Assembly (NCBI GenBank): GCA_963793305.1
Contig: CAWBZV010000005.1
Coordinates: 864,001-928,000, forward strand
Origin: an uncultured Gemmatimonadales bacterium
GTDB taxonomy: Bacteria; Gemmatimonadota; Gemmatimonadetes; Gemmatimonadales; Gemmatimonadaceae
Length of the DNA stretch: 64,000 nucleotides
Direction of reading: 5' to 3'
Position 1 is the stretch's first letter, and each line of letters begins with the position of its first letter. Both the position numbers and the translations under genes were made by a program. This document shows positions 47,383 to 64,000 of the stretch, in pieces. The notes under the pieces are model-generated. The model was not told the origin of the DNA. It made no database searches and was given only the letters and a program-made list of their open reading frames with translations.

Positions 47383-48038
47383 GGAATCGCCGCCTCCAGC
47401 AAGGCGACGAGCTCCCCCATGCCTTCGCCGGTCTTGGCCGAGACGGCCAATGTCCGCATGCCGGGCCGTACAGCCTGCACGTTGCGTTCGATGGCGTCCC
47501 GGTCGAACTCCACGGCAAGGGCGAGGTCCATCTTCGTGATCACCGCGACGTCGGCGGTATTGAAGATCGTCGGATACTTGAGCGGCTTGTCTTCACCTTC
47601 GGTGACCGACAGGATCACGCAGCGCAGGTGCTCTCCCAGGTCATACGATGCGGGGCACACCAGGTTGCCCACGTTCTCGAGGAACAAGAAGTCGAGCTGG
47701 TCCAACGCCCATCCGTCAAGGGCTTGCTCGACCATCGCCGCATCGAGGTGGCAAATGGTACCCGTGGTGATCTGCCGGACTTGGGCGCCGCTCCGCGCCA
47801 GGCGTGCGGCGTCATTCTCGGTCGCCAGGTCGCCAACGAGCGCTGCCACCCGATATCGCCTGTGCAAGGTCGTCAGGATTCTCTCGAGCAACATCGTCTT
47901 TCCCGAGCCCGGGCTCGATACCAGACTGACGACAAAGACCCCGTTCTCCTGAAAGCGATCTCGCAATGCCCGCGCGAGGATATCGTTGTGCTTGAGGATA
48001 TTCTGCCGCACCTCGACCAGTCGCGGAGCCATGGTCAT
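47379..48038 (-). CDS. hypB: Hydrogenase nickel incorporation GTPase
   Basis: SSPGSGKT, CHLDA, ENVGNLVCPA, EGEDKPLKYP, TKMD. Confidence 0.95.
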   Translation of the reverse strand: MTMAPRLVEVRQNILKHNDILARALRDRFQENGVFVVSLVSSPGSGKTMLLERILTTLHRRYRVAALVGDLATENDAARLARSGAQVRQITTGTICHLDAAMVEQALDGWALDQLDFLFLENVGNLVCPASYDLGEHLRCVILSVTEGEDKPLKYPTIFNTADVAVITKMDLALAVEFDRDAIERNVQAVRPGMRTLAVSAKTGEGMGELVALLEAAIP

Positions 48039-48277
48039 GACTCGATCTCCAACGCCACGAGCTCCAGCTCCCGGCCGTCGGTATCCTCAATCACGAGACG
48101 TGAACCGGCAATCGGCGTGTCCTGGCATGCGATGTCGAACGAAAACGCCAACGCCTCCTTGGCGACACCAGCCAACTGGCCGATCTTCACATGCACGGCA
48201 CATACGCGCCCGCCCAGGCGCCCGCCTTCCTCCGTGGCGATTTCCACGAGGCTCACGGCTACGGACAATTCGTGCAT
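48035..48277 (-). CDS. hypA: Hydrogenase nickel metallochaperone, short form without Zn finger
   Basis: MHELS N-terminus, V.IGQLAGV..EAL.FSF, GREL C-terminus; no CxxC pairs. Confidence 0.85.
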   Translation of the reverse strand: MHELSVAVSLVEIATEEGGRLGGRVCAVHVKIGQLAGVAKEALAFSFDIACQDTPIAGSRLVIEDTDGRELELVALEIES

Positions 48278-50412
48278 TGCCCAAAGGCCGCGAGCGCGGC
48301 TTGGCCGAGGCTGATCCCGCCATCGTTCGGCGGAACGAGGTGGTTGGTCCACGCGCCCAACTCACCCTGCACAATCATATTTTGTAGGACACCACCCGAC
48401 GCCACCACGGTATCGACGTCGTGTGTGTCACACAGAGTCGCAATCGCGCCGCGCAGCCCACGAACGAACCCGGCGTGGAACGCCCGCGCAATCGCATTGA
48501 CATCGCGCCCACGTCCGCGATCCCTGACAACGCCGGCGAGCAGCGGCCGAAAATCCAGCTCGGCGCCGTCGAACGGAAAATCATACGGCGCGGTGTGACC
48601 TGATCTTCGCGCGCACTGCTCCAGCCAGATCGCCGCTTGCCCTTCGAACGAGATCGGCCGCATCCAGCCGAGGACCGCGGCGACTGTGTCGAATAGCCTT
48701 CCGGTGGAGGTGGTGGTGAACGTTCGTGTTCCGCTCCCGAGCACGGCGAGCGCGTCACGATATCGGTCGGAGTCGAGCTCGACATCGATCTGATGCAAGA
48801 ACCCGGCGGCCGCCTGCACGGGATGCCGCGCCGCCGCATCGCCGCCGACGAGCGCGGCTGGCCTGAGATGCGCGACGCGCTCGAACCCGCGCGCCACACT
48901 GCCGACGAAGATCTCGCCACCCCAGATAGTGCCGTCGTCGCCATACCCCGTGCCGTCGAGCGCCACACCGAGCACACGCCGTTCCCACTCGCCGCGCTCG
49001 GCGAGCACTGAGGCCACGTGTGCGCGATGATGCTGCACTCTCAGTGACACACCGCTCGCGGAGCGGTACTCCGGATGCGCGTCGCCGACGACGAGGGCCT
49101 CGGCGCGGTCCACACGGTACATCCGGAGGAGGTCATCGATCGTCTCGCGAAACGCGCGAAAGGATTGGTAGTCGTCGAGATCCCCAATGTGCTGACTCAC
49201 GAACGCTTGGCCATCGACCACCAGCGTGATCGTATTCTTGAGATCGGCGCCGAGCGCGAGAATCGGCCGGTCGGTCGGAATGGTCGCCACCGCCCCGGGC
49301 GCATACCCGCGACTCCGCCGCAGAATTATCGGCCCGGGACGCACCACGGAATCCTCGATCCGCCGCGCAATCGGCCGCTCGCCGACCAGAAACCCGTCCG
49401 CTATGCCGCTGAGCCGTTCGCGCGCCTCGCGGTCCTGATACGCAATCGGCTCGCTCGACCGATTGCCGCTCGTCATCACGAGCGCCGTCGGCGCGCCTGC
49501 CGCGAACAGCAGGTGATGCACCGGAGAGTACGGCAGCATGATCCCGAGCTCGTCGTTGTCGGGCGCGACACCCGGTAGCTTCACGGTGCCGGGCACGAGC
49601 ACGATGGGTCTGGCGCGACTGGTGAGCAACGCCACGGCCTCGTCGGATAACTCGGCCAGTCCTCTCGCCGCGTCCACGTCCCGCACCATGACCGCGAACG
49701 GCTTCTCCTTTCGGTATTTTCGCTCCCGCAACGCGACGACCGCGGCCGCGTTTCGTGCATCACATGTCAGGTGATACCCGCCAATCCCTTTGACCGCCAG
49801 AATCCATCCTTCCCGCAGCCGTTCGGCGGCGCCTGCAAGGTCATATTGCGGTCCGCACGCGGGGCAGCAAACGGGTTGCGCATGGAATCGCCGATTCGCA
49901 GGGTCATGGTATTCGTTTGCGCACAATGCATCCATCCGCCACATCGCCATCGTCGTGGCCGGGCGATCATACGGCAGCTCGCGCACAATCGAATACCGCG
50001 GTCCACAGTTCGTGCAATTAATGTACGGGTACAAAAACCGCGGATCGCCCGCATCGAACAACTCGCCAAGGCACGCGTCACACGTCGCCAAATCGGGGGA
50101 GATGGGAACGACCGGCGGATCGGGTCGCCGACTCTCCCGAATCTCGAAGTCGCCCAGTCCAGCAACATCGGCCGGTGCAACGTCGATGGCCGCAATCGCG
50201 GCCGCGGGCGGCGCATGCGCGCGCAGCGCGCCGAGAAACGTGTCGAGGTCATCGTGCGACCCTTCGAGGTGAATCTCCACGCCGTCCCCGGCGTTCAGCA
50301 CCCACCCGGCCAACGTGTGCTCATGCGCCAGTCGATAGACATACGGCCGAAAGCCGACCCCCTGCACGATGCCGCGCACGCGCACCGAGCACGCGCTCGT
50401 CACTCCGGTCAT
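48259..50412 (-). CDS. hypF: Carbamoyltransferase HypF
   Basis: VRGIVQGVGFRP, CDAC, INCTNCGPRY, RFHAQP.CCPACGP, KGIGGYHL, QHHRAH, DGTGYG, PNDGGISLGQ. Confidence 0.96.
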   Translation of the reverse strand: MTGVTSACSVRVRGIVQGVGFRPYVYRLAHEHTLAGWVLNAGDGVEIHLEGSHDDLDTFLGALRAHAPPAAAIAAIDVAPADVAGLGDFEIRESRRPDPPVVPISPDLATCDACLGELFDAGDPRFLYPYINCTNCGPRYSIVRELPYDRPATTMAMWRMDALCANEYHDPANRRFHAQPVCCPACGPQYDLAGAAERLREGWILAVKGIGGYHLTCDARNAAAVVALRERKYRKEKPFAVMVRDVDAARGLAELSDEAVALLTSRARPIVLVPGTVKLPGVAPDNDELGIMLPYSPVHHLLFAAGAPTALVMTSGNRSSEPIAYQDREARERLSGIADGFLVGERPIARRIEDSVVRPGPIILRRSRGYAPGAVATIPTDRPILALGADLKNTITLVVDGQAFVSQHIGDLDDYQSFRAFRETIDDLLRMYRVDRAEALVVGDAHPEYRSASGVSLRVQHHRAHVASVLAERGEWERRVLGVALDGTGYGDDGTIWGGEIFVGSVARGFERVAHLRPAALVGGDAAARHPVQAAAGFLHQIDVELDSDRYRDALAVLGSGTRTFTTTSTGRLFDTVAAVLGWMRPISFEGQAAIWLEQCARRSGHTAPYDFPFDGAELDFRPLLAGVVRDRGRGRDVNAIARAFHAGFVRGLRGAIATLCDTHDVDTVVASGGVLQNMIVQGELGAWTNHLVPPNDGGISLGQAALAAFGQCTNCP

Positions 50413-50738
50413 TCGCCGACCACACACCCACGGCCTTGCCAGCCGACTTGCACCACCGTGCCATCCTGCACGAGCACAGGCACAGTCCGCTCGGGGCCGG
50501 CGTACGAGCGCATGCGGTCCCGCGCTTGCGTGTCCGTCTCGACGTCGTACTCGGTAAACGCGACGCGCCGCATCTCCAGCCACTCCCGCATATCGCGCGT
50601 GTAGGGACACGTCGTCGTCCCGAACAGCTCTAGCCGCGCTGCGCTGCGGCTAGAGCTTCGCTTCGAGGCGTCGCTCCGCTCCGCACGAAGCGGGTCGGTT
50701 GGACAGATCTCGGCTGCGCCTCGATCAGGCGTTGGCAC
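50409..50738 (-). CDS. Glutaredoxin-like protein with N-terminal extension
   Basis: CPYT, EYDVE, RTVPVLV, C-terminal GWQGRGC; GTG start overlapping the end of the SIS gene (start uncertain). Confidence 0.75.
   Translation of the reverse strand: MPTPDRGAAEICPTDPLRAERSDASKRSSSRSAARLELFGTTTCPYTRDMREWLEMRRVAFTEYDVETDTQARDRMRSYAGPERTVPVLVQDGTVVQVGWQGRGCVVGE
50627..50692. repeat. Compound palindromic (REP-like) element
   Basis: AGCTCTAGCCGC-N8-GCGGCTAGAGCT followed by a GCTTCG...CGAAGC stem. Confidence 0.5.
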
Positions 50739-51876
50739 GGATGAGATGGTAGATGGAAGCCTGGACTTCTTGAATCCGCGGGATGTAATCCGACCGCACG
50801 ACGATGCAGTGATCCGCCAACCCACGCCGCCGAATCTCACCGCCGTCGTACCCGAGCAGCGCCACCGTCACGAGCTCACGCTTCCGCGCCTCTTCGAGCG
50901 CGGCGATCACATTGCGCGACCCACCGCTCGTCGAGATCGCAATGGCGATGTCGCCAGGCGCGGCGTGGGCGATGAGTTGTCTTAAGAAAATGACATCGAC
51001 GCCAACGTCATTCGCGATCGCCGTGATGTTCGCCGGCTCCATCGCCAGCGATATCGCGGGCATCGGCACATATCCCTCGGGCGGGGCAACGCAGTCCAAC
51101 GCCCAATCGTTGGCGTCGGTCGCCGAGCCGCCGTTGCCGAAGATGATGAGCTTCGAACCCTGTCTGACACTCTCCCGAATCGCCAGCGTCGCGTCACCGA
51201 TGGCGTCGGCCTCCTCGGCCGCGACCGTCGCGCGCAGCGCGCTGTCGTCAGAAACCTTCGCGATGATGGATCCGGCGACATCCGCCATCGGAACCGACTG
51301 CCCCCGCGCCAGAAACGGATACAGGAACTCGGCCTGCCCAACGTCGTGCCCGAGCTCGCGGTGCTCGAAGAACACGTGCACCGTCTCCCACAACGTGTGA
51401 TACAGGATCTCGATCATCTCCTGATGCATGAACGGATCGTGCGTCACCGCTCGAATCGCGTACGACCCGGCCGAGCCGGGAAGCGCGAACGTCATGGCCC
51501 CTCGCGATCGCGCCACCGCCAGCGCCGCCCACACCGCCGGATCACCCTCCGGCGGCCCGAAACCCATGACGATGTCCTCAGGCCGCAGGATGGCATCGAG
51601 CCACGCCGGAAACTCCGGCGAAATGTCGAGCGCGGGCAACGCTCGCTTGCCGACGATGACGGGATGCACGAACTCGACGGACACGTGCTGCGCGTCAGTC
51701 GCATACGACCCTCGTCCGAACGCGAGCAACCGCCCGCCGCGCAGAAAGCGCTGCGCCATCTCTTCGCACGCCTCCGCCAGCACCACCGCCTCGCGCGCGA
51801 AGAACGCCTCGAACAACTGGTTGCGTTCGAGCAACCCCTGTTCGATCTGCGCACCAAGTCCCAATCGCGTCAACAT
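50725..51876 (-). CDS. Tandem SIS-domain (GmhA/phosphoheptose isomerase-like) protein
   Basis: Two SIS halves: GRGSYATDAQH and FGNGGSATDA, TAIAND, AISTSGGS, RIQEVQ. Confidence 0.85.
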   Translation of the reverse strand: MLTRLGLGAQIEQGLLERNQLFEAFFAREAVVLAEACEEMAQRFLRGGRLLAFGRGSYATDAQHVSVEFVHPVIVGKRALPALDISPEFPAWLDAILRPEDIVMGFGPPEGDPAVWAALAVARSRGAMTFALPGSAGSYAIRAVTHDPFMHQEMIEILYHTLWETVHVFFEHRELGHDVGQAEFLYPFLARGQSVPMADVAGSIIAKVSDDSALRATVAAEEADAIGDATLAIRESVRQGSKLIIFGNGGSATDANDWALDCVAPPEGYVPMPAISLAMEPANITAIANDVGVDVIFLRQLIAHAAPGDIAIAISTSGGSRNVIAALEEARKRELVTVALLGYDGGEIRRRGLADHCIVVRSDYIPRIQEVQASIYHLIRANA

Positions 51877-52883
51877 ATGCGAGGCAGAGGATCCCCGACG
51901 AGCATATCCACGATGCGGCTCCCGCCGTACCCCGTTGTGACGAGCACGGAGCCGGCTGGCTCGCTCTTGATCTCACCAATAAGCGCTGCGCGCTCGCCCA
52001 TTGCCGCCAACGCCATCTCGGCATACTCGGCCGCAACAACCGTCAGGAATTGCCCTTCGTTGGCAATGTGTAGTGGATCGAGACCGAGTAACTCGCAGGC
52101 GCCTCTGACCTCCGCACGGACCGGTATGAGCTCTTCCAGGAGATGAACGCCGAAGCCGCTGTCGAGGGCCAGCTCATTGAGTGTCGTCGCGACCCCGCCC
52201 CGGGTCGGATCGCGCATCCACCGCACACCGGGGCCCGCGGCTCGCATCAACGCTTCCACGAGCGGGAAAACCGATCGCGTGTCCGACTGGAGATCGGCCT
52301 CCAGATCCAGCTCCCCACGCGCGAGCAAGATCGTGATCCCGTGATCCCCGATGGGCCCCGAGACAATGATCTTGTCCCCAGGTTGAACCTGGCGGGGCCC
52401 GAGCACGAGCCCGGGGCGCCGTAGTCCAATCCCTGTCGTCGTGATGTACATCTGGTCGGCCTTGCCGTGCTCGACGACTTTCGTATCGCCACCGACGATC
52501 GCAATCCCGGCGCACGCGGCGGCCTGTGCCATCGCGCGCACTTCGGCCTCGAGGACACTCGTCGGCAATCCCGCCTCGAGCACAAACGATACGACCATCG
52601 CCACCGGCGTGGCGCCAGATACCGCGAGGTCGTTCACGGTACCGTTGACGGCCAACTCTCCAATGGACCCGCCGGGGAACTTGAGCGGCGTGACGACAAA
52701 CGCGTCGGTCGTAATGGCCACTGCCGCTCCGTCGACGTCGACCGTCGCCGCATCGCCGAGCGACTCGTGCGCATCGTAGGCATCGCGCATGAGCAACGGC
52801 GCGATCAGCCCGTCGATGAGGCGCCGGGTCGCCTTGCCGCCGGCGCCATGGGCCATCTCGATCTGCGGCTCGCGAAATTTCAC
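51870..52883 (-). CDS. hypE: Hydrogenase maturation protein HypE
   Basis: MAHGAGG, FPGGSIG.LAVNGTVND, GGDTKVVE, MRDPTRGG, terminal LPRIC; GTGA overlap with hypD. Confidence 0.96.
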   Translation of the reverse strand: MKFREPQIEMAHGAGGKATRRLIDGLIAPLLMRDAYDAHESLGDAATVDVDGAAVAITTDAFVVTPLKFPGGSIGELAVNGTVNDLAVSGATPVAMVVSFVLEAGLPTSVLEAEVRAMAQAAACAGIAIVGGDTKVVEHGKADQMYITTTGIGLRRPGLVLGPRQVQPGDKIIVSGPIGDHGITILLARGELDLEADLQSDTRSVFPLVEALMRAAGPGVRWMRDPTRGGVATTLNELALDSGFGVHLLEELIPVRAEVRGACELLGLDPLHIANEGQFLTVVAAEYAEMALAAMGERAALIGEIKSEPAGSVLVTTGYGGSRIVDMLVGDPLPRIC

Positions 52884-54005
52884 ACCGTTGCGGGCTGGCG
52901 CCCCAACGTCTTCCGATGCTCGTAGTTGTAGTACGCTGCGCATGATCCTTCCGAGGAGACCATCAACGCCCCGACCGGCCGCTCGGGCGTGCACTCGCGC
53001 CCGAACAGTTTGCACTGCACAGGCTTGAGCACGCCCTTCAAGACTTCACCGCACTGCGCGGCCTTGGGATCGGTCACCCGCACCCCCGCGATGTCGAATC
53101 GGCGCTCGGCATCCCACTGCGCGTAGCTCTCCTTGATCCGCAGGGCAGACTGCGAGATGAACCCGAGCCCGCGCCACTCGAAGAACGGCCGCAGCTCGAA
53201 CACCTCGGCCATCGCCGAGAGCGCGGCCCGGTTGCCTTCCCAGGGAACGACGCGCTTGTATTGGTTCTCGACGATCGAGGTACGCCGTTTGATCTGCCGC
53301 AGCAACATGACGATCGATTGCAGCATGTCGAGTGGCTCGAACCCGGAGACGACGATCGGCCGCTTCTCGTCCCGCGCGATCCACTCATACGGCCGGCATC
53401 CAATCACGGTCGACACGTGCCCGGGACCGATAAACGCGTCCAGTCGCATATCGGGTGAATCCAATATCGCCCGAATAGCGGGGATGATGGTGACGTGGTT
53501 ACAGAACACCGAAAAATTCTTGATGCCCTCGGCTTTCGCCCGCATGAGCGTCAACGCGGTCGATGGCGCCGTCGTCTCGAACCCGATGGCGAAGAACATG
53601 ACGTGCCGGTCGGGATTGGTTCTGGCCAGCTTGAGGGCGTCCGATGGCGAGTACACGATGCGCACATCCATGCCCCGCGCCTTGTGCTCCAAGGGGCTGC
53701 CGTGCGCACCCGGCACGCGCATCATGTCGCCGAACGCCGCGAAGATGACCTCGGGCTGCCTGCCGAGCGCGAGCCCGTCATCGATCCGCCCCATCGGAAG
53801 CACGCACACGGGGCATCCCGGCCCGTGAATCAACTCGAATGTTCTCAGGCAGGACATCCTTGAGCCCGAACCGATAGATCGCGTGCGTATGGCCACCGCA
53901 CACCTCCATGAACCGATACCGACGCCCGGGGTCGGTCAGCCACCGGATCTCCTCGGCGACCGTGTTGATCACCTCGGGATCGCGAAACTCATCGACGAAT
54001 CTCAT
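52880..54005 (-). CDS. hypD: Hydrogenase maturation protein HypD (apparent +1 frameshift near 53839)
   Basis: MEVCGGHTH in one frame; HGPGCPVC, GFETT, GPGHVS, MVSSEG in the other; removing one T from AACATTCGAG restores ENIELIHG. Confidence 0.93.
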
Positions 54006-54277
54006 GAGGACTCCAGCCCGTAGCCGCGGACCTCTTCCATCGCCGCCAGGTCTTCGCCGAGGATTCTTAACGTTCGCATCTGCTCGGCCGCGTCCTGCTC
54101 GCTGATCTTGCTCATCGCGAAACCGACGTGAATGAGGACCCAGTCGCCAGGAACTGGATGCTCATCGACGAGCAGCCCGAGATCCACGCGCCGGCGCACC
54201 CCATTGACGTCAACGAGCGCGAGCGTCGCGTAATCGGCGACCATCTCGACGATCTTACCGGGAATCGCTAGGCACAT
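54002..54277 (-). CDS. hypC: Hydrogenase assembly chaperone HypC
   Basis: MCLAIPG, GDWVLIHVGFA. Confidence 0.95.
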   Translation of the reverse strand: MCLAIPGKIVEMVADYATLALVDVNGVRRRVDLGLLVDEHPVPGDWVLIHVGFAMSKISEQDAAEQMRTLRILGEDLAAMEEVRGYGLESS

Positions 54278-54409
54278 TTGGCGACAATGTGGAATGTACA
54301 CCTGAACTCATCGAGCCTGAGCGTCGTTTGATCGGCGACCATCTCGACGATACTATCGGGAATCGCTAGACACATTGGCGACAATGTCGAATGTACACTT
54401 GAGCTCATC
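54221..54409. repeat. Diverged tandem duplication of about 92 bp at the yceI/hypC junction
   Basis: Copies at 54221-54312 and 54319-54409 share ATCGGCGACCATCTCGACGAT, GGGAATCGCTAG, TTGGCGACAATGT, GAATGTACAC. Confidence 0.9.
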
Positions 54410-54916
54410 CTTTGCCTTGACCGCCCCACCTGCGGCGCTCACGAGCTTGATTCCGTAGTCAGTCTGTCTGACACTGAACTCACCATACGCCCGCAGTGTC
54501 GCAGGACTGACAATCGTACGCGCATTCACAGGCTGCCGGCGCGAAGCGCCGTGCAGCGTGAGATTGCCCGAAAGGGCAACATCGAATTGCCCATCGCCGG
54601 TGCGCTTCGTGGTGGTAACGGAGGTCGGCGAATCGTACGAGATAGTCTGGTATTTCGATATCTCGAGCACTTGATCCCGCATGATGCTCTCGATCTCCTC
54701 CCGATCGCGACTGCTGACGTCGTCGATGAGCTCCAACGAAGCCCCGGTGATCGAGAGCGCCAACGACGCGTCGGCGCCCGATTCCGGATCGATGTTAACC
54801 TCGCCCTCGTACTGCCGGACCGCAAATGTCGGATTGTGCGCCAGCGCCGACAACATGCCGGCCGCAAACGCCTTGATCGTGAATTTGCTCACGCCAACCT
54901 CGATCCTATACCTCAC
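54353..54916 (-). CDS. YceI-like protein
   Basis: Y.I....S.F start, L...KY..I.Y, LSGNLTLHG, F.VRQTDYGI. Confidence 0.8.
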   Translation of the reverse strand: MRYRIEVGVSKFTIKAFAAGMLSALAHNPTFAVRQYEGEVNIDPESGADASLALSITGASLELIDDVSSRDREEIESIMRDQVLEISKYQTISYDSPTSVTTTKRTGDGQFDVALSGNLTLHGASRRQPVNARTIVSPATLRAYGEFSVRQTDYGIKLVSAAGGAVKAKDELKCTFDIVANVSSDSR

Positions 54917-55113
54917 ATAGCTCTGAGCTTCAGATATCGGGCCACATCGGGCACGGCGTTCTGGATCAGGTCGACTGGCCGTATCTGCCCCAGCAATTGC
55001 CGAACGTTCCGGTTCGACAAGATCAAGCCGGCGCCGAGGACCGCCAGCGCCACTCCGCCGAACAGGAGCATAGTATCCCGATCGGCCGCGTCGTCATTCT
55101 CGACTGCTCTCAT
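54913..55113 (-). CDS. Small membrane protein of the hydrogenase cluster
   Basis: Single TM, PDVARYLKLRAM end, GTGA overlap with the YceI-like gene. Confidence 0.65.
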   Translation of the reverse strand: MRAVENDDAADRDTMLLFGGVALAVLGAGLILSNRNVRQLLGQIRPVDLIQNAVPDVARYLKLRAM

Positions 55114-55853
55114 CGCTCCCCCCATTCAAGAATTTCGCGATCAGCAACTCCACGACGGTCGCGGCCTGCACGACAGCGGCCTCTACTTCGGGACTCAGCC
55201 CCATCTGCCCTTCCGGCGGCCCCAGTGTGACCGGCTCACACCCGACGATCAGTACGTTCTTCAACGTCGCGCCTTGCGCCCTCGACAGCCGCAACACGTG
55301 CAGGGGATTCATGTCGTGCGCATCGAATGTCGCCGGGTCGCTCTCGTGCTCGATGTCGGGCTCGATGACAAAGAATGTCGCCCGGAGTCTTCCCCCACGG
55401 ACACGCGTCGACGAGGATGACGTGGTCGTACTCATCCATGAGGGCAAACGCGAGATCGTACCCTCGTATGCCAAAATCGACGACGTTCACACCAGCGGGG
55501 AACTCGCGGCAACCGAAATGCCTGACGACCTCGACCCCGAACCCGTCGTCGCCCATGAAGATGTTGCCGATCCCGGCTACGAGAACCCGTGGCGGCGAGG
55601 GTTCCGGCGGCTCGGCCGCCGCCTCTATGAACTCCAACTCGGCCGGCGCAAAGAAGAACCGATGCGCGGGCGCGCGCGGCCCGAGGGCTCGGCCCGGGTC
55701 GTCGTCGAGCACGACCACGACGTGCTCCTGCCCGCCGTAATCCCGCTCGACGGACGCCACTCGCGCCAACTGACCCGCCAGCGCGAGATCGAAAATGTCG
55801 CCCCGCACTTTGGGCTGAAGCCGCACGCGATCCCCGGGCTGCAGCGTGGTCAT
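55094..55853 (-). CDS. Hydrogenase maturation endopeptidase (HyaD/HupD family) with an extra N-terminal domain (apparent +1 frameshift near 55380)
   Basis: VLVAGIGNIFMGDDGFG, DFGIRG, ILVDA; removing one base joins PGTFFVIEP...DAHDMNP...IVGCEP...GLS. Confidence 0.85.
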
Positions 55854-56608
55854 ACGGGTCTCATCGTCCCATGCAGCTTCATGAGCTGCTCGGCCGCGAG
55901 GGATTGCGTGCGCTCCAACAGCGCGCGACCCTTCTCGTCGGACGCGCGTATCTCGCGCTGCTCATCGTCGGTCAGCGTCAGGATCCGGAGCGACAGGATC
56001 TCATCGATCTCCGTGCTATCGTAGAGATCCCCGGGACTCTCGTCCGCGATCTCCGGATAGTCGTACACAATGATAGGAGACGACAGCATGATCTGATGCT
56101 GTCCGCGCGGACCCGCCAGTACGGGCCACGTCCGAAGGTTCCGGCACTCGCCCGCCGTCGCCCGATAGATCTCCGGCGGGTCGATCATCGAGACGAACTC
56201 TCCGTTCGACACGCCGAGAATCGTGTGCGTCGCCGCCATCGAGTGCCCGGACTCGGGCGTGTTGACGATTCGGGCGCGGAGTCTCAACGTGCGGTCGGCA
56301 TACCGGAGCGTGGACACCTCGACCACGCCACTCAACGAGGCCCAAGCGAACGGCGTCGAGCCCATCGCGCTGGTGGTCACCTCGCGCTCGACCGGATCGG
56401 GCGTGAGCTCGATGAACCGCACGCGCACATCGAACGTCGTCGCCGCATCGCCCATGACGAGACACTCGGTCTGCATGTACTCGCCGGGCGCGATGACGCC
56501 GAAGTTGAACGGCTGGCGATTCTTGAGCGCCGATGGGCGGTACGGGTAGAGCAGGTACCCTTCGTAGAGCAACACATTGGCGACTTTGTCGACGTCGGTG
56601 ATGGTCAT
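55850..56608 (-). CDS. Conserved group 1h hydrogenase-associated hypothetical protein
   Basis: VLLYEGYLLYPYR.SA.KN, LSSPII.YDYPEIA.ES.GDLYDSTEIDEILSLR. Confidence 0.8.
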   Translation of the reverse strand: MTITDVDKVANVLLYEGYLLYPYRPSALKNRQPFNFGVIAPGEYMQTECLVMGDAATTFDVRVRFIELTPDPVEREVTTSAMGSTPFAWASLSGVVEVSTLRYADRTLRLRARIVNTPESGHSMAATHTILGVSNGEFVSMIDPPEIYRATAGECRNLRTWPVLAGPRGQHQIMLSSPIIVYDYPEIADESPGDLYDSTEIDEILSLRILTLTDDEQREIRASDEKGRALLERTQSLAAEQLMKLHGTMRPV

Positions 56609-57234
56609 ACGCGCGTCACCTCCTCCATCACTTGCTCCCAGGTGGGAATGCCGCGAGCGATCTTGAACCGGTAGAGCCGCTCGAAGATGTCCCGCCGGAG
56701 CGCCAACCAGGCGAGGTTCGGATAGTACTGATCCATGAGATTCTTCCATACCTTCACCGGGAGCCGGAACTTCGCCTCGCGGTCCCAGGGGATCGGCGCG
56801 ACCTGCAGCGCCCCGGACGCATCCTGATAGAACACGCTGCCGCTGAACTGAAACGTGAGCGGCACCTCGCCATCGGCGAGCGCATAGAAATACTTGGTCG
56901 CCGCGACGTTGAAGTCGAACGTGCACGGCACGGGCATCTCGACCGTGGTCTCGCGAGTGAACGACGGCACGATCACACCCACGTGCGTCCACAGCAGGCT
57001 CTTGAGCGTCGTGCCCCAGCGATCCCGCTCGCCGAAGAGGTCCCGGAGCTTCGCCGCTTCCTCGCTATCGTACTGGCGGCGCACGACGTCGAGCTGGATC
57101 TGGCACCTCAGGACCACGGTGTGGACCGCCTCGTCGGATGGCTGGTTCGTCACCCGCAGCGCGAATCCCAACATCGGTACGAGAGCAAAGGGCGTCACCG
57201 ACGCGCTCTCAACGGCGAACGATAGATCAGGCAC
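56605..57234 (-). CDS. DUF6084-like group 1h hydrogenase-associated protein
   Basis: LRCQIQL, DLFGERDRW, PCTFDFNVAATKYF, FSGSVFY, PWDREA, YYPN. Confidence 0.8.
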   Translation of the reverse strand: MPDLSFAVESASVTPFALVPMLGFALRVTNQPSDEAVHTVVLRCQIQLDVVRRQYDSEEAAKLRDLFGERDRWGTTLKSLLWTHVGVIVPSFTRETTVEMPVPCTFDFNVAATKYFYALADGEVPLTFQFSGSVFYQDASGALQVAPIPWDREAKFRLPVKVWKNLMDQYYPNLAWLALRRDIFERLYRFKIARGIPTWEQVMEEVTRV

Positions 57235-57788
57235 GACGCCTCAGCTCGTTGAAGAAGTCCGCGATCGCCACCCACACCTGCGTTCCCCCCGAGAGCCCCT
57301 TCCACTGTGTTCGAATCAACCCCACCAGCCGGTAGCACTGGTCGATCGGCGCCACGAAATACTCCGGCACGGCGCGATTGACGAGCAGGGCTTCGAACGT
57401 CAGGCGCCAGCCCTATGTCCTCCCACGTGTCGAGGTCTAGCGCGGACTCCGTTGCCCCAGCCGGGCTCGGATAATACGCCACCACACGCTTATGCGGCGT
57501 GGAATGGACGAAGAACGCCAGGTTGATCGGAATCCCGAGCGCGTCCCATTGCGCGTTGCTCATCTGAAAGTCGCTCAAGAGTCGCACGCGCCGAGGCACG
57601 CGCTTGCGCGTTGTCGTCCGCTCGAACAACACGGCGCAGGCGCCACACGCGCAGATGAGCCGTCGCTCGCCCACCTCGAGCAGATGCTCGTGGTCGCTGT
57701 GCAAATCGGTCCCACACAACTCACACCGCTCGGTCGCCCGCGAGCGGGCATTGAACTGGCGCAGGCGATTGAACGCGGTCGCGCCCAC
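57227..57788 (-). CDS. DUF5947-like group 1h hydrogenase-associated protein (apparent +1 frameshift near 57397)
   Basis: ERCELC, H.H, CACGAC, YPSPAGATES; removing one T from GACGTTCGAA restores PDVEALLV...PIDQCY.LVG...W.GLSGG. Confidence 0.82.
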
Positions 57789-58234
57789 TAGCGCCTGCGC
57801 TCCAGCATCACCAGCGGCTCTTGGCGCTCCACGACGATCGAGTCGACCTCGGGGGCGGCCTCTCGAAGCGCCTCTTCAATGGTTCGGACGAGCGACGTCG
57901 GGCCGTCGACGCGCACGTGCGCCGATGAGTCATCGACGCGTAAGATCTCGACCTTTCCCTCGTGTGTCCGCAATGCCTCTCGGACCCGCTTGGTGGCGTC
58001 CCACGGATGCAGGTCATGCAACAACAGCAGCGTGCGCACTTTCGGATCCCGCGCGAATCGCTCCAGCAGCGCCTCGCCGGGCGCGCCACTCGCGCGCGTC
58101 AGGTCGAGGAGACGCCCGAGTCCAGCGGCATGGAGCTCCATCACGGCCTGCAACAACTCCTTTGACATGGCTTTCGAGGCCGGGTCACTCCCGGCCTCGA
58201 GTTGCTCCACCAGCTCGGCGATGCGCTCGATCAA
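57788..58234 (-). CDS. NifU-like hydrogenase accessory protein
   Basis: VMELHAAGL, LLLLHDLHP, RV..AL, IEEALREAAPEV; TTG start overlapping the hhyL stop; no CxxC seen. Confidence 0.7.
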   Translation of the reverse strand: MIERIAELVEQLEAGSDPASKAMSKELLQAVMELHAAGLGRLLDLTRASGAPGEALLERFARDPKVRTLLLLHDLHPWDATKRVREALRTHEGKVEILRVDDSSAHVRVDGPTSLVRTIEEALREAAPEVDSIVVERQEPLVMLERRR

Positions 58235-60024
58235 GGTTGTATCCCGAACATCGGCGTGTGATGCGTCTCGAGCGTCTTGCCGTTGCCGAGGTACATGTGG
58301 ACGCCGCACGGCAGACAGGGATCGAAGCTCCGCACGGCGCGCATGATGTCGATGCCCTTGAACGAGTCCGGCCCGTTCTCCTCGAAGATCGGCGTGTTCT
58401 GCACGGCATCTTCGTACGGTCCGGGCGTCCCATAGACATCGCGCACGCTGCCGTTCCACGGCGTCGGCGGATACGGGTGGTAGTTGGCGATCTTGCCTTC
58501 GCGGATCACGACGTGATGCGACAGCACGCCCCGGACGGCCTCGTGGAATCCGCAGGCGATGGCCTCGTCGGGCACCTTGAACTCGCTCCACGTCCTGGTG
58601 CGCCCCGCATGGAGCTCGGCCAGCGCCTTATCCACGAAGTAGTACGCGCAGGCGCACGCATACGCCTGGAAGTACGTGCGCGCGCGGTCACGCTCGAGCG
58701 CGTTGCTCCACTTTGGGATCTTCCACTCGAACTCGGTCTCCGGCAGCGTGGCGGTCTTCGGCAGATAGATCTTGACACTCTTGCCGGTCGCTTTCACGTA
58801 CCCAATGTCAACGATGCCGGCCAACGCCGTGGCCCAGAATCTGGCGATCGGCCCGCCACCGGTATCGAGCGCCAGATAATCTTTGCCGTCGAACCACCGC
58901 GGCGACATGGTCCAGCTGTACTTGTCATCGAAGTCGCGCTTCTGCGGACGGGGTATCGTCGTCTGGTTCCATGGGTGCCGCTGATCAACGGGGTTCCCAA
59001 GCGGGTCTTGCCGCACGAAGGTCTCACTATTCTGCCAATCGTCGTAGAACGAATGCCCCAGCAGAATCCTGATCCCCAGATTGATATCAACCAAATCATG
59101 CGTCACCAACTTCCCATCGACAACGACGCCAGGCGTGACATACATAGCGTCGCCCCACGTCGACATCTTCTTATACGTGTAGTCACACGCATCGGGATTA
59201 TTGAACGACCCCCAGCAGCCGAGCAACGTCCGCCGATACCCAACCTTCTCGTATCCCGGTAGCGCCTCATAGAAGAAGTCGAACAGATCATCATGCAACG
59301 GCACGACCTTCTTCATGAACTCGGCGTATCTCGCCAGCCGGACGAGATAGTCGGTAAAGAGCTGGATGGTAGGCACGGTCCCAACGCCGCCAGGATACAG
59401 CGTCGACGGATGCACATGCCGTCCTTCCATGAGACAGAACATCTCACGGGTATATCGACTGACCTGTAGCGTCTCGAGATAGAACGACCCGGTGAAGGGA
59501 TTCAGCGCGGTCATGATGTCCGCGATGGTCCGAAATCCGTGCTGCTCGGCGTGAGGGGATTGGGTCTTCTTGGCCTTCTCCCAAACGCCAGGATTCGTGG
59601 CGCGCACCATCTGCTCGCAGAAGTCGACGCCGACCAGGTTATCCTGGAAGATGTTGTGATCGAACATGTACTCGGCCGCTTCGCCGAGGTTGACGATCCA
59701 CTCACCGAGCGCGGGCGGCTTGACGCCAAAGGCCATGTTCTGCGCATACATGGCGCAGGTCGCGTGATTATCGCCGCAGATCCCGCAGATGCGACTCGTA
59801 ATGAAGTGCGAGTCGCGCGGGTCTTTGCCTTTCATGAAAATGGAATAGCCGCGGAAGATCGACGATGTGCTATGGCACTCCGCGACTTCTCTGTTCTCGA
59901 AGTCGATCTTGGTGAAGATGCCGAGGCTCCCGACAATGCGCGTGATGGGATCCCAGTTCATCTCCACGAGTTTGCGCGATTTCCCCTCGCTGCCAGCGCG
60001 CCCCGTGGGGGCAACAGTTGTCAT
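58231..60024 (-). CDS. hhyL: Group 1h [NiFe]-hydrogenase large subunit
   Basis: L1 TSRICGICGDNH and L2 SFDPCLPCGVH signatures; WDPITRIVGSLG; C-terminal extension after the His. Confidence 0.96.
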   Translation of the reverse strand: MTTVAPTGRAGSEGKSRKLVEMNWDPITRIVGSLGIFTKIDFENREVAECHSTSSIFRGYSIFMKGKDPRDSHFITSRICGICGDNHATCAMYAQNMAFGVKPPALGEWIVNLGEAAEYMFDHNIFQDNLVGVDFCEQMVRATNPGVWEKAKKTQSPHAEQHGFRTIADIMTALNPFTGSFYLETLQVSRYTREMFCLMEGRHVHPSTLYPGGVGTVPTIQLFTDYLVRLARYAEFMKKVVPLHDDLFDFFYEALPGYEKVGYRRTLLGCWGSFNNPDACDYTYKKMSTWGDAMYVTPGVVVDGKLVTHDLVDINLGIRILLGHSFYDDWQNSETFVRQDPLGNPVDQRHPWNQTTIPRPQKRDFDDKYSWTMSPRWFDGKDYLALDTGGGPIARFWATALAGIVDIGYVKATGKSVKIYLPKTATLPETEFEWKIPKWSNALERDRARTYFQAYACACAYYFVDKALAELHAGRTRTWSEFKVPDEAIACGFHEAVRGVLSHHVVIREGKIANYHPYPPTPWNGSVRDVYGTPGPYEDAVQNTPIFEENGPDSFKGIDIMRAVRSFDPCLPCGVHMYLGNGKTLETHHTPMFGIQP

Positions 60025-60031
60025 ATTGTCC

Positions 60032-61093
60032 TCAAGCCCTGGGGTGATATCCCGTGGTCAACTCTCCCCGCGGGTGGCGCCACTTCGGTTCTTTATTGAG
60101 GGTCGTATTCGTAAAGGATCTCAGCGCTCGAATCGTGCGCCCGTAGATGCTGATGCTCGCGGCGGAGACTTTCGCGCCCGGCGGCTCATCCATGAACGGC
60201 ATGAACTTGTCGGGGAACCCGGGCATGGTGCATCCGATGCAGATGCCGCCGACGTTCGGGCACCCGCCGATGCCCGCCATCCATCCCCGCTTCGGCACGT
60301 TGCAGTTCACGACCGGCCCCCAGCATCCGAGCTTGACGATGCACTTGGGCGAGCCGTACTCGGTCGCGAAATCGCCTTGCTCGTAGTATCCGGCGCGATC
60401 ACATCCCTCATGCACCGTCTTCCCGAACAACCACGTCGGTCGTAACTGATCGTCAAGCGGAATCATTGGCGCGAGACCGGCAACCTGATACAGGAGATAG
60501 AGCACGGTCTCCATGAAGTTGTCAGGCTGCACCGGACACCCGGGCACATTGACAATCGGGACACCCGCTTTCGACCGCCAATCCCATCCGAGATAATCCG
60601 CGAGTCCCATGCACCCGGTCGGGTTGCCGGACATTGCATGGATGCCACCGTACGTGGCGCACGTCCCGATCGCGACAACTGCGAGGGCCTTTGGCGCGAG
60701 CCGATCGATCCATTCCGTGGTCTTGATCGGCTGCCCGGTTTTGGTGTCAGTGCCGAGCGCGGCCCAGTACCCATCGGGCCCGTGGATCTTCTCGTTCGGG
60801 ACTGAGCCCTCAACGACGAGCACGAACGGATCGAGCTTCCCTTGCTCGGCTTGATACCAGAACTTCATGAAATCCGAGCCGTTCTCAACCGCGAGAACGG
60901 GGTTGTGCAAATGGACCTTGGGCAAACCGGGAATAGCGCCGAGCAACACGTCTTCGATGCTCGGCTGTGTCGCCGCGGTAATCGAGACCGTATCGCCATC
61001 GCACCCCAGGCCGGCGGTCATCCAGACGATGTGGATCTCGGGAACCGGCGACGGCCGCTGCGTCTTGCGACCATAAGGCACGGTGTCGGGCAT
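60032..61093 (-). CDS. hhyS: Group 1h [NiFe]-hydrogenase small subunit
   Basis: GLGCDGD, VEGS, GTCATYGG, PGCP, HEGCDR, KLGCWGP, GGCPNVGGICIGC; no Tat signal. Confidence 0.95.
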   Translation of the reverse strand: MPDTVPYGRKTQRPSPVPEIHIVWMTAGLGCDGDTVSITAATQPSIEDVLLGAIPGLPKVHLHNPVLAVENGSDFMKFWYQAEQGKLDPFVLVVEGSVPNEKIHGPDGYWAALGTDTKTGQPIKTTEWIDRLAPKALAVVAIGTCATYGGIHAMSGNPTGCMGLADYLGWDWRSKAGVPIVNVPGCPVQPDNFMETVLYLLYQVAGLAPMIPLDDQLRPTWLFGKTVHEGCDRAGYYEQGDFATEYGSPKCIVKLGCWGPVVNCNVPKRGWMAGIGGCPNVGGICIGCTMPGFPDKFMPFMDEPPGAKVSAASISIYGRTIRALRSFTNTTLNKEPKWRHPRGELTTGYHPRA

Positions 61094-61151
61094 AGCCCCT
61101 CGATGCGCGTTGTGGTGGCTTTGAGATACCGACACGAGCCGGCCGCAACAA

Positions 61152-61190
61152 GCGGGGACATCCCGCGATGTCCTAGGGGAATCCCTTAGG
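61152..61190. promoter_or_regulatory. Paired GGG-N-CCC palindromes upstream of hhyS, candidate response-regulator sites
   Basis: GCGGGGACATCCCGC and CCTAGGGGAATCCCTTAGG with centres about 22 bp apart. Confidence 0.5.
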
Positions 61191-61202
61191 TCGAACCGCT
61201 AC

Positions 61203-61856
61203 TCAATCACTGCTCAGCCGCCACTCGATCGCGCGCTGCATCAACGCGCGCGCGCTCGGGAGCGACAGCTTGTCCTTGATGTGCGCTTGATACGATTCGA
61301 CGGTCTTGATGCTCAAATGCAGTTGCTCGGCGATCTCGCGCGTCCCGTGGCCGTCGCCGATGAGCCTGAACACTTCGAGCTCGCGGTCGCTGAGCGTCGA
61401 GACGAGGCTCTGCGGCGAGTTGCCTTGTTTCGAGACGAGCTGTTGCAGCATCGTGTTCGCGATGCGATCGCTGACGTACACCTCGTGGCGCAAAATGCGG
61501 CGGATCGCCACGAGCACCCGCTCGGTGGCTTCCTGCTTCATGATGTAGCCGTTCGCGCCCGCCCGCAGGGCTCGCTCGGCGTAGAGCGACTCGTCGTGCA
61601 TCGACAGGACGAGAATGGGCAGGTTGGTATCGGTCGCCCGAATGCTCTTCAGTAGGTCGAGTCCGTCGGGCCCATTGAGCGAGATGTCGAGTACCAAGAC
61701 GTCGGGATTGAGCGCGGCAAGCGCGGCGGGGACCGGCCAGGCTGCCTCAGCCTCGCCGCAGACTATGAGATCCGGCTCCTGATTGATGAGCAGCGTCAGG
61801 CCCTGTCGGACGATCGGGTGATCGTCGACGAGAAAGACGCGGTACCGATCGGTCAC
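61203..61856 (-). CDS. NarL/LuxR-family response regulator
   Basis: FLVDDHPIVRQGL, VLDISL, LSMH, GANGYIMK, LSDRELEV...SIKTVESY; GTGA overlap with the kinase stop. Confidence 0.93.
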   Translation of the reverse strand: MTDRYRVFLVDDHPIVRQGLTLLINQEPDLIVCGEAEAAWPVPAALAALNPDVLVLDISLNGPDGLDLLKSIRATDTNLPILVLSMHDESLYAERALRAGANGYIMKQEATERVLVAIRRILRHEVYVSDRIANTMLQQLVSKQGNSPQSLVSTLSDRELEVFRLIGDGHGTREIAEQLHLSIKTVESYQAHIKDKLSLPSARALMQRAIEWRLSSD

Positions 61857-63256
61857 GCGCGCAGCGGGAATCGACACGAGACCACCGTCCCGCGCTCCGG
61901 CCCGCGCCGCACTTCGACTGATCCGCCGACCAAATTCGCGCGATATCGCATGATGTGGAGCCCCAGTCCGCTTCGGCTCGGCAATGTGTCGGGCAATCCC
62001 ACCCCATCATCCTCGATAGTGATATTGCCCTCTTCCGCCGATCGCCGCAACGAGACGCATACGCGCGTCGGCCTGGCGTGGCGGATGGCATTGTTCACGG
62101 CCTCCTGCACGATGTGATACACCTGCGTTGCCACCCTCACATCGGGCACCTCGATAGGCTCATTGCACCGTATTTCACAAGGGATGCGAAAGAGGTCCTC
62201 GACCTCTCCGGCCCACCGCTTGAGCGCGGCGAGCAGACCCTCCGCGTCCGACAACACCGGCAGCAGGCCCCGGGACAGCTCGCGAGTCTTATTGATGGCC
62301 TCGTTGACGAGCCGGACGATCTTGGCTGCATCCGCCGGCTCGGCCATCTGCCCGTCGGCGAGCTTCTGCTCCAGGACCTTCGACATGAAGGCAATGCCCG
62401 TGAGATGCTGACCGAGGCCGTCGTGCAGATCCTGTGCGATCTGTCGCTGCACCGTGGTGCTGACATTGAGGATGGCCTCTTCCATCCGCTTGCGCTCCGT
62501 GATGTCGATGCCGGTCGCGATCACCGAGCCGGGGGAAAGCGTCGTGCACGACCAGGCAATGCGCCGCTGGCCTCCATCCGCATCGGTCAGCCAGCTCTCG
62601 AACTCGCTGCGAGCGACAGTCTGGGGAGGAATCGAGAACAACTCGCCGAACGATCGTCCGTTGGCCGTGCGCCCCAGCAACCGCTCGCACGCGCGGTTGG
62701 ACCGGATGATCTGCCCGGAGGGGTCCAGGACGACGATCAGCGCGCCGACAGTGTCGAGGATCCCGGACACGACGTTGCGCTCCTCTTGCAGCGCTTCCTC
62801 CGTGCGCTTGAGCTCCGTGATATCGAACGCGACTCCGTGGATGAACCACGGACGCCCGTCGTCACGCCGCACCATCTTGGCTTCGCAGTGGAACCACACC
62901 ATGTGGCCATCGCGCGCGATGACGCGATACGCCGATCGCAACGGCCGTCCCGTCAGGAACATCTCGGCCGCTTCGATGCTCCAGCGTGAGCGATCGTCCG
63001 GGTGCACCTGGTTGTACCAGCGCACGGGGTCCTCGAGCCATTCCGCTTGTGTGAATCCGAGCACTTCTTCGATCCGCGGACTCACATATGCTTCACCGAT
63101 GCCGCGGTCGAGGTAGGCCATGAAGACGACGGCTTGGACCTGCTCGACCAGCGTCCGGTACCGGGCCTCGAGCGTGTGCTCTTCCATCTGGCCCGGCGGT
63201 CCGACAAAGACCGACGCGAGCCCTACGAGCGTGGCCTCCGCTTCTATTTGATTCAC
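61853..63256 (-). CDS. Cytoplasmic PAS-PAS sensor histidine kinase (HisKA_3)
   Basis: YVSP...LG...W...VHPDD PAS with DITE, second PAS with DITERK, AQDLHDGLGQ, QEAVNNA, DDGVG, GLGL; no TM segment. Confidence 0.92.
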   Translation of the reverse strand: MNQIEAEATLVGLASVFVGPPGQMEEHTLEARYRTLVEQVQAVVFMAYLDRGIGEAYVSPRIEEVLGFTQAEWLEDPVRWYNQVHPDDRSRWSIEAAEMFLTGRPLRSAYRVIARDGHMVWFHCEAKMVRRDDGRPWFIHGVAFDITELKRTEEALQEERNVVSGILDTVGALIVVLDPSGQIIRSNRACERLLGRTANGRSFGELFSIPPQTVARSEFESWLTDADGGQRRIAWSCTTLSPGSVIATGIDITERKRMEEAILNVSTTVQRQIAQDLHDGLGQHLTGIAFMSKVLEQKLADGQMAEPADAAKIVRLVNEAINKTRELSRGLLPVLSDAEGLLAALKRWAGEVEDLFRIPCEIRCNEPIEVPDVRVATQVYHIVQEAVNNAIRHARPTRVCVSLRRSAEEGNITIEDDGVGLPDTLPSRSGLGLHIMRYRANLVGGSVEVRRGPERGTVVSCRFPLRA

Positions 63257-64000
63257 GTGCGCCGCTTGTTGAGGGAGGCCTGGGTAAACCGCCGCAGCGC
63301 GTGAATGGCCTTACCGTATGTCATGACCGCGGCCGTCGAGAGCAGGGAACCGGGCGGCTGATTCATGAAGGGTTGAAACTTGTCCGGAAATCCAGGCATA
63401 GTGCACCCGATGCAAATGCCGCCCACGTTGGGACAACCGCCGATCCCACTCATCCATCCCCGCTTCCCGACGTTGCACTGCACAACCGGTCCCCAGCAGC
63501 CGAGCTTCACAATGCAGGTCTTCGCTCCGTACGTATCGGCGAACTCACCTTGCTCGTAATATCCTCCACGATCGCACCCTTCGTGCACGGTGCTCTCGAA
63601 GAGCCAACGCGGCCTCAGCGACTCATCGAGCGAAATCATCGGCGCGCGTCCCGCCGCCATGTGCAATAAATAGAGCAGCGTCTCCATCATATTATCGGGT
63701 TGCACGGGGCAACCTGGGACGCATACGATCGGAATCTGCGCCTGGGACCGCCATTCCCAGCCCAGGTAGTCGGGCAAGCCCATGCAACCGGTCGGGTTGC
63801 CTTGCATGGCGTGAATGCCGCCGTACGCCGAGCATGTGCCCGCGGCGACGACGGCCCAGGCATTCGGCGCCAGGCGATCGATCCACGTGCACGTCTTGAT
63901 CGGTTCCTTCGTGGTTGGGTCAGTGCCGAACGATGCCCAGTAGCCTTCGCCGGCGAGCGATTCATCCGGAATCGAGCCTTCGACGACCAGGATGAAGGGG
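63253..64000 (-). CDS. Second group 1h-type small subunit paralog, C-terminally shortened (5' end beyond the window)
   Basis: Open to the edge: VEGSIP, GTCSAYGG, PGCP, HEGCDR, KLGCWGP, GGCPNVGGICIGC; ends SLNKRRT with GTGA overlap onto the kinase. Confidence 0.9.
   Translation of the reverse strand, partial: PFILVVEGSIPDESLAGEGYWASFGTDPTTKEPIKTCTWIDRLAPNAWAVVAAGTCSAYGGIHAMQGNPTGCMGLPDYLGWEWRSQAQIPIVCVPGCPVQPDNMMETLLYLLHMAAGRAPMISLDESLRPRWLFESTVHEGCDRGGYYEQGEFADTYGAKTCIVKLGCWGPVVQCNVGKRGWMSGIGGCPNVGGICIGCTMPGFPDKFQPFMNQPPGSLLSTAAVMTYGKAIHALRRFTQASLNKRRT

Follow-up and report, generated by a model that had tools for sequence, protein, structure and literature searches.

Why does a second small subunit of a group 1h [NiFe]-hydrogenase, hhyS2, stand directly upstream of a sensor kinase and a response regulator that in turn precede the hydrogenase operon hhySL? 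The arrangement lies at the end of a 64,000-nucleotide stretch of DNA (the window) from an uncultured Gemmatimonadales bacterium (assembly GCA_963793305.1, contig CAWBZV010000005.1, positions 864,001 to 928,000), and an earlier note, made from the letters of that stretch, had proposed that the second copy was repurposed as a sensory subunit controlling hhySL through the two-component pair. The three genes form a module that is real, widespread and uncharacterised, and that has been mentioned in passing in print. We propose that HhyS2 would be the input subunit of a three-gene control module for the group 1h atmospheric-H2 hydrogenase; that it would borrow the cell's only HhyL, giving a low-abundance sensory hydrogenase; that PAS1, the first PAS domain of the kinase, would read the redox state of the iron-sulfur (Fe-S) chain, which H2 oxidation and the drain of electrons to respiration would determine; that the kinase would be the transmitter between HhyS2 and the regulator; and that the NarL-type regulator would bind a palindrome upstream of hhyS and turn on hhySL. 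To this whole chain, argued from comparison of sequences, we assign a probability of roughly 0.4.

Conservation and divergence of the kinase-linked small subunit

Confirmed relatives of hhyS2 number at least 562 among genome contigs, and the best 80 of these (77-98% identity, mostly Acidobacteriota) were compared. The order hhyS2-kinase-regulator-hhyS-hhyL is found in 65 of them, with a spacing from hhyS2 to hhySL, here and in relatives, of about 3.1-3.8 kb; the linkage, whose absence from other genomes would have told against the earlier proposal, thus recurs. Of the other 15 loci, five reach hhyS only, three hold kinase and regulator only, four the kinase only (two at a contig end), one has a frameshifted kinase, one an hhyS remnant without a kinase, and one lies at a contig edge. 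No large subunit was found upstream of hhyS2 or between hhyS2 and the kinase in any of the best 80 loci. Reciprocally, metagenome loci were selected by the kinase alone (289, of which 80 were compared): hhyS2 is directly upstream in 71, and seven reach a contig edge. All locus and genome counts in this work overstate independence, because the genomes are kin and some of the loci are duplicates.

The pairing also holds at the level of genomes. Among 401 sampled Acidobacteriota genomes (the centre genome included by design) an HhyS-like match occurs in 24 and PAS1 in 12, identical to the 12 that hold hhyS2. Among 401 Gemmatimonadota genomes an HhyS-like match occurs in 19 and PAS1 in six, of which five hold hhyS2 (the genome of the window included) and one has a contig that breaks off where the kinase begins. 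The unpublished genomes G157 and G429 enter these tallies as single distant matches and bear on no other claim. Two genomes with a single hhyS match carry a kinase and a NarL regulator upstream of hhySL, and that kinase is without PAS1. At loci L199 and L200, a different PAS kinase and a NarL regulator stand upstream of hhySL, with no PAS1 and no hhyS2 match in the genome, which by gene order is a second case of a two-component pair recruited to this position. In two genomes, G542 (L205/L194) and G767 (L206/L195), the PAS1 kinase and the regulator lie upstream of hhySL and hhyS2 lies elsewhere, therefore any partnership between HhyS2 and the kinase would act there in trans. A second large subunit was suspected in a 5-kb gap between the two copies in two genomes; what lies there is a longer kinase together with an unrelated gene.

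In the test that the earlier note had suggested, the kinase-linked copies form a clade of their own with conserved synteny. In a quick IQ-TREE tree built from 19 of the 80 loci and from deeper copies (70 rows in all; L208 skipped, L090, L193 and L203 missed by the filter, HofK not included) 29 paralogs fall in one clade (SH-aLRT 100), and 27 of these 29 precede a PAS1-type kinase, the exceptions being L195 and L021. The window-type Gemmatimonadota paralogs group with one Terriglobia row inside the Acidobacteriota diversity, which hints at a transfer between phyla. A distant Gemmatimonadota group of HhyS-like proteins (L096-L101, L108) shows about 50% identity and a long C-terminal extension. 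The median pairwise ratio of nonsynonymous to synonymous substitution (dN/dS), from the 31 of 2016 pairs with a usable dS and with L005 dropped for its frameshift, is 0.027 in the paralog, against 0.019 in the main copy; hhyS2 is under strong purifying selection. That the second copy is a decaying or misassembled duplicate, as its shorter tail here and the frameshifts or lost partners in a few loci (L005, L021) might suggest, is already refuted by this ratio, by the separate clade and by the same junction in independent metagenome contigs, and we give it virtually no weight.

The complete open reading frame (ORF) of hhyS2 spans C5:927253-928257 of the genome, 257 bases past the window end. Once the sequence beyond 64000 was retrieved, no large subunit was found adjacent to it, as had been claimed from the window, and its upstream neighbour is a DNA-alkylation-repair-like ORF; tblastn of the assembly (92% complete) gave one group 1h large subunit, that behind the main hhyS. 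HhyS2 consists of Oxidored_q6 and NiFe_hyd_SSU_C domains and shares 68% identity with the main HhyS of its own genome, 67% with HofK (group 1h) and 32% with HoxB; its best PDB match is 5AA5 (HofK/HofG; E 4.9e-157), and a relative with 98% identity in this protein carries a Gemmatimonadaceae label. Searching with a profile of the paralog alignment gave close relatives only, without gene context.

With the Fe-S ligand positions read by analogy with standard small subunits, all 12 are present in the full ORF (C29, D32, C142, C183; H225, C228, C248, C254; C261, C275, C282, C285), which bears out the earlier claim that the diverged copy retains those visible in the window. Exceptions in the clade are Glu for Asp at the proximal cluster in 5/30 paralogs and the absence of C183 in one. 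HhyS2 also retains 152 of the 167 residues that are invariant in 38 main copies. Against this background stand conserved residues specific to the paralog (W134, G231, Q260, G264), C-terminal helix residues peculiar to its clade (Q300, S304, L306, A310, A320, S328, L329), two extra cysteines typical of the clade (C123 in 27/30 and C179 in 26/30 paralogs) and altered residues beside the proximal cluster (34-36, 54, 64, 179). The N-terminal PYGR motif is found in 0/30 paralogs vs 24/38 main copies, and the terminal LTTGY motif in 4/30 vs 37/38. The earlier note had pointed to the stop at SLNKRRT: the ORF does end so, where the main HhyS runs on with EPKWRHPRGELTTGYHPRA, but this ending is specific to the lineage, and nearly all relatives of HhyS2 extend with EP-x-WR and a basic tail of unconserved sequence. 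The pattern fits a subunit that has retained its cofactor chain and may have acquired a new surface. C123 and C179 were dropped as a functional pair since they do not co-vary, and W54, which at first appeared diagnostic (80/80 vs 0/64), fell to 20/30 once deeper paralogs were included. The AlphaFold2 model of HhyS2 was poor (mean predicted local distance difference test score 55.7, below 50 in the C-terminal half), and prediction of its complex with kinase residues 1-165 scored 0.15 against a mark of 0.32.

The gene overlaps described earlier stand in part. The overlap of the hhyS2 stop with the kinase start (GTGA, 63253-63256) is present here and in the nearest relatives (L003, L109-L115), but it is lineage-specific, most related loci having a gap of about 90-280 bases from hhyS2 to the first kinase match. 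The GTGA overlap of kinase and regulator requires a regulator start at GTG 61856, to which the in-frame GTG 61877 is a possible alternative. A conserved TAGAATACGC element lies upstream of hhyS2 in L003-L082, with TAGAATAC common to 37 loci; it is probably the -10 box of a promoter of the module's own, and a weaker form is seen at C5:928290-928310 of the genome.

The palindrome upstream of hhyS

Between the regulator and hhyS lies a 15-bp palindrome (Table 1), whose core, GGGA-n-TCCC, is found at this position in 39/63 loci. The window has one copy, which alone is not beyond chance (6/100 shuffles matched). With a matrix built from 34 training loci, 29/29 held-out loci reached at least 12.8 bits, against 11.4 at the 99th percentile and 13.3 at the maximum for shuffles. 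Of 57 further loci that carry the cognate regulator (at least 60% identity; the window's own copy and some duplicates or nearly identical loci are among them), 55 reached at least 12 bits, as did one of seven loci with a different regulator (score 12.3) and three of 23 rows without an adjacent regulator (two rows being duplicates); in those three (L175, L212, L214) the regulator lies at a distance of 4 kb or at another place in the genome. In 3/5 module genomes the exact pattern is present just once, upstream of hhyS; it was found in 0/5 comparison genomes, where this regulator is not beside hhyS. The split between loci with and without the regulator holds within both phyla, though kinship limits the counts. 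The recognition helix of the regulator, KTVESYQ, is conserved in relatives, KTVESY being nearly invariant.

Because the palindrome tracks the regulator and hhyS2 co-occurs with PAS1, control of the hhySL promoter by the module, already proposed in the earlier note, is very probable, and the regulator probably binds the candidate operator and activates hhySL. Autoregulation of the module is not supported, since only 2/79 regions upstream of hhyS2 reach 12 bits with the operator matrix.

The layout downstream of the palindrome would suit an activator. Many relatives show, by eye, two weaker similar sites at steps of about 22 bases after the palindrome and then CTTG...17...GATTCT, and the candidate promoter of the window, although below the threshold of the consensus scan, agrees with this layout. 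NarL-family activators typically have phased sites ahead of a -35 element. The stretch from palindrome to promoter is about 24 bases shorter in this genome than in its relatives, the pattern for the -35-like element matched only 21/64 regions, and the promoter scan gave nothing above chance. Between operator and promoter, at 61156-61173 of the window, there is an inverted repeat with 7-bp arms and a 4-base loop, whose counterpart in L003 has other letters that still mostly pair; it is possibly a terminator or a second site.

The genome of the window holds the site at other places as well: five sites of at least 21 bits (0 expected under a Markov model) and 15 of at least 17 bits (7.6 expected). 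Further palindromes lie at C10:67249, 72729, 73878, 85481, 126996, 133324 and 135112, at C23:4609, 5039, 8645, 24435 and 46759, and at C3:719680. The genes behind them encode SulP/STAS, cytochrome c, copper-oxidase, BON, alpha/beta-hydrolase and SIR2-like/REC proteins, a set which resembles a low-oxygen or dormancy regulon. Several of the C10 and C23 palindromes are near USP genes, a second hydrogenase and another NarL regulator (C10:94110-94740, helix KTVDTY), which is perhaps the owner of that regulon. Either the regulon is wider in this genome or two regulators may share one site. The second hydrogenase, at C10:75240-78830, is an [NiFe]-enzyme of another type (24-26% identity to HhySL; PF00374, 762 bits), with protease-like and membrane-protein genes, cytochrome b/c and ccmE/F as neighbours.

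These sites also allow for a different, global NarL-type regulator as the reader of the palindrome, with the adjacent pair controlling something else; the five sites of at least 21 bits, several of them near the C10:94110 regulator with its KTVDTY helix, would suit this. Across two phyla, however, the site follows the cognate regulator, and it is absent in six of seven loci where another NarL regulator takes its place, so that we regard such a global reader as very improbable.

The input of the module and its rival readings

The kinase matches PAS_3, PAS, HisKA_3 and HATPase_c; its highest 19-residue hydropathy is 1.66, hence there is no clear membrane helix, in agreement with the soluble PAS-PAS kinase of the earlier note. 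Its second PAS domain is shorter than in relatives. Across 57 kinases PAS1 is highly conserved and PAS2 variable, and PAS1 has a single invariant Cys (C124), therefore no NreB-like cluster motif. A PAS1 profile scores 146-250 bits on module kinases and at most 22 on the other PAS proteins of the genome; it had no match in plasmids, and the hits of a broad phmmer search from the kinase N-terminus were overwhelmingly multi-PAS proteins. The core behind PAS1 is exchangeable: mostly HisKA_3, it is HisKA or hybrid HisKA-REC in L192, L194, L196, L197 and the first kinase of L060. At L060:8001-12552, tandem PAS1 kinases (HisKA, HisKA_3) stand behind one hhyS2 that still has its LTTGY tail.

Given the pairing of hhyS2 with this one domain, it is likely that HhyS2 acts on PAS1. 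If it does, action together with a borrowed HhyL is somewhat favoured, because the subunit is so fully conserved, the genomes examined carry HhyL, and hhyL but not hhyS transcript has been reported during growth (PMC8027828). The genomes examined that have both the paralog and PAS1 encode a group 1h-like large subunit; the exception among the paralog genomes is that of L021, which has no kinase at its locus. In the accessible text of PMC8027828, hhyL but no hhyS transcript is reported in the exponential phase, from which we infer that HhyL may then be free for another partner.

Several observations weigh against this proposal. The paralog is without PYGR, mostly without LTTGY, and altered beside the proximal cluster, changes that could weaken the binding of HhyL. 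Two of the 80 kinase-picked metagenome loci have no hhyS2 upstream, and one paralog locus, L021, is without kinase and without hhyL; there (L021:8001-10235) hhyS2 is followed by an hhyS remnant and maturation genes, with no HhyL match in the genome, and it appears to be a deleted locus. The palindrome could also be read by another protein, as the same site precedes other genes near a regulator with a similar helix. In the available part of PMC8027828 the hydrogenase was induced by carbon limitation and the paralog transcript was detected in one of two strains only (KBS 83); Edaphobacter aggregans, where it went undetected, still induced hhySL and oxidised H2. Induction by carbon limitation, together with the lack of a detected paralog transcript in E. 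aggregans, argues against a simple H2 switch.

The main rival is an HhyS2 that needs no HhyL: docked on PAS1, it would sense O2 or the redox state of the cytoplasm by itself, through Fe-S, with hhySL still under the regulator; by analogy it would resemble NreA modulating NreB, except that it would supply the Fe-S cluster which PAS1 is without. The single invariant Cys of PAS1, with no NreB-like cluster motif, the clade-typical C123 and C179 and the changes beside the proximal cluster would suit such a protein, as would the palindromes before BON/USP-region, cytochrome c and copper-oxidase genes, presumably of a low-oxygen or dormancy kind. The culture data, in which induction followed carbon limitation (PMC8027828, as far as its accessible text goes), point the same way. 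Ligands for three clusters and 152/167 invariant residues seem, however, more than a lone sensor needs; C123 and C179 vary independently and make no obvious pair, and three relatives have the exact site at hhyS and nowhere else. We consider the stand-alone sensor unlikely, though less so than any other rival.

The intact fold and ligands, the loss of the terminal motifs of a working subunit and the presence of mostly one HhyL per genome examined are also what an assembly checkpoint might leave, in which HhyS2, by binding mature HhyL or by receiving Fe-S clusters, would report to the kinase whether nickel insertion and cluster supply suffice for more enzyme to be made. The present results do not separate such a checkpoint from redox sensing, but no precedent was found in the literature searched, and we hold it improbable. 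Marginally less credible still is a catalytic role, in which HhyS2 would stand in for HhyS and link HhyL to a different electron acceptor, lie in the operon for co-regulation only, and leave the kinase to sense something else. The full electron-transfer chain, the 67% identity to HofK and the transcript detected in KBS 83 (PMC8027828, accessible text) speak for it; yet hhyS2 stays by PAS1 kinases despite relocation of the module from hhySL or exchange of the kinase core, and PAS1 was not found in sampled genomes with hhySL alone.

The longest ORF of hhyS starts at GTG 61135, within the candidate promoter, and the ATG at 61093, with a GAGGGG site upstream, suits the relatives better. Behind hhyL are NifU-like, DUF5947, DUF6084, protease and hyp genes; downstream of hhyL, at 47379-57788 of the window, ORFs resembling hypF, hypD, hypE, hypB, hypA and hypC (named by eye from their translations) are accompanied by a SIS-domain protein, a glutaredoxin-like ORF, YceI and a HycI-type protease. 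Only small shares of the RNA runs matched (0.05-0.11); four of seven gave short contig pieces, some covering hhyS2, kinase and regulator in two soil runs, and these are uninformative on transcription or its level.

Table 1 Features of the hhyS2 module and the adjacent hydrogenase operon, in window positions.
Feature	Position	Strand	Description
hhyL, group 1h large subunit	58231..60024	-	597 aa, 80% identity to HofG
hhyS, main group 1h small subunit	60032..61093	-	likely start ATG 61093 (MPDTVPYGR), 75% identity to HofK
Candidate sigma-70-type hhyS promoter	61123..61151	-	TTGTTG, 17 bases, TATCTC; by eye from alignments
15-bp palindrome, candidate regulator operator	61174..61188	.	consensus TAGGGGA-W-TCCCCTA
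NarL/LuxR-type response regulator (REC + GerE)	61203..61877	-	D64 phospho-acceptor counted from GTG 61877; alternative start 61856
Soluble sensor kinase	61853..63256	-	467 aa: N-terminal helix, PAS1, shortened PAS2, HisKA_3 (H278), HATPase_c
PAS1 (kinase residues 30-150)	62807..63169	-	conserved PAS subfamily; co-occurs with hhyS2
hhyS2, group 1h small-subunit paralog	63253..64000	-	334 aa, gene continues to genome C5:928257

Comparison with described systems

To call the arrangement undescribed would be too strong. An additional hhyS about 3,600 bp upstream of hhySL is recorded in the accessible part of PMC8027828 for three Acidobacteria (Acidobacteriaceae bacterium KBS 83, Edaphobacter aggregans and Pyrinomonas methylaliphatogenes), and, compared by description and spacing, it is almost certainly the same module. 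That account, so far as its accessible text extends, gives no clade, kinase, regulator, operator or function for the extra gene. In the available portions of two further papers, hhySL loci are described with the extra copy not mentioned (PMC5900883) and the HydDB table lists no kinase-linked group 1h type (PMC5037454); the open question is stated in what is accessible of PMC13098282. A literature search whose coverage mostly excluded subscription papers found no paper characterising the module or the palindrome. What is added here is a candidate operator whose presence tracks that of the regulator, and a pairing, at the level of genomes, of hhyS2 with one PAS subfamily. Beyond the account in PMC8027828, the module is also seen in Gemmatimonadota.

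The best solved relative is HofK/HofG (PDB code: 5AA5). HhyS2 stands closer in sequence to HofK than to HoxB and has the same ligand set as HofK, with ligands for three clusters and Asp at the proximal one; it differs in lacking the terminal motifs (LTTGY in 4/30 paralogs), in the C-terminal helix residues of its own and in standing beside a kinase instead of a large subunit, none of the best 80 loci having one directly downstream.

In architecture the module recalls NreABC of staphylococci (PMC8139620, known to us from its accessible text), which likewise combines an accessory soluble protein, a cytoplasmic PAS kinase and a regulator, and in which Fe-S takes part in sensing, as proposed for the module. 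The NreABC regulator binds a GC-rich palindrome; the palindrome of the module, a candidate operator at the level of sequence, tracks its regulator. The two are likened by description only: NreB has a [4Fe-4S] cluster of its own, PAS1 a single invariant Cys; NreA is a GAF protein that binds nitrate, the accessory protein here a hydrogenase subunit. With these defining features absent, NreABC is an architectural analogy.

A functional parallel would be the group 2b system HoxBC-HoxJ-HoxA of Cupriavidus necator (pHG1 record; HydDB table, PMC5037454). With it the module would share the logic of a hydrogenase-derived input, a soluble kinase and a regulator of the hydrogenase operon, and it does share the linkage of a soluble PAS kinase with a hydrogenase operon alongside. 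The parts differ. HhyS2 has 32% identity to HoxB and no dedicated large subunit; the kinase, of HisKA_3 type, has no significant match to HoxJ (best E 0.22); and the regulator is NarL-type (GerE), with no match to HoxA, which is sigma-54-dependent and NtrC-type. Judged by these comparisons the module is not a group 2b system, though it may work like one, and if our model holds the likeness is convergent. It would then be an independently evolved second hydrogenase-based sensor, made of a group 1h small-subunit duplicate sharing HhyL, a dedicated PAS subfamily, a NarL-type activator and a defined operator; this description in full is slightly more doubtful than the chain of action itself. Were it true, soil bacteria would sense H2, or the electron flow from it, at atmospheric levels, and one PAS subfamily could be wired to several kinase types; the module offers a concrete candidate among soil Acidobacteriota, which are abundant, and in some of the Gemmatimonadota. 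With a borrowed HhyL, enzyme and sensor would share a single catalytic subunit, unlike the group 2b systems.

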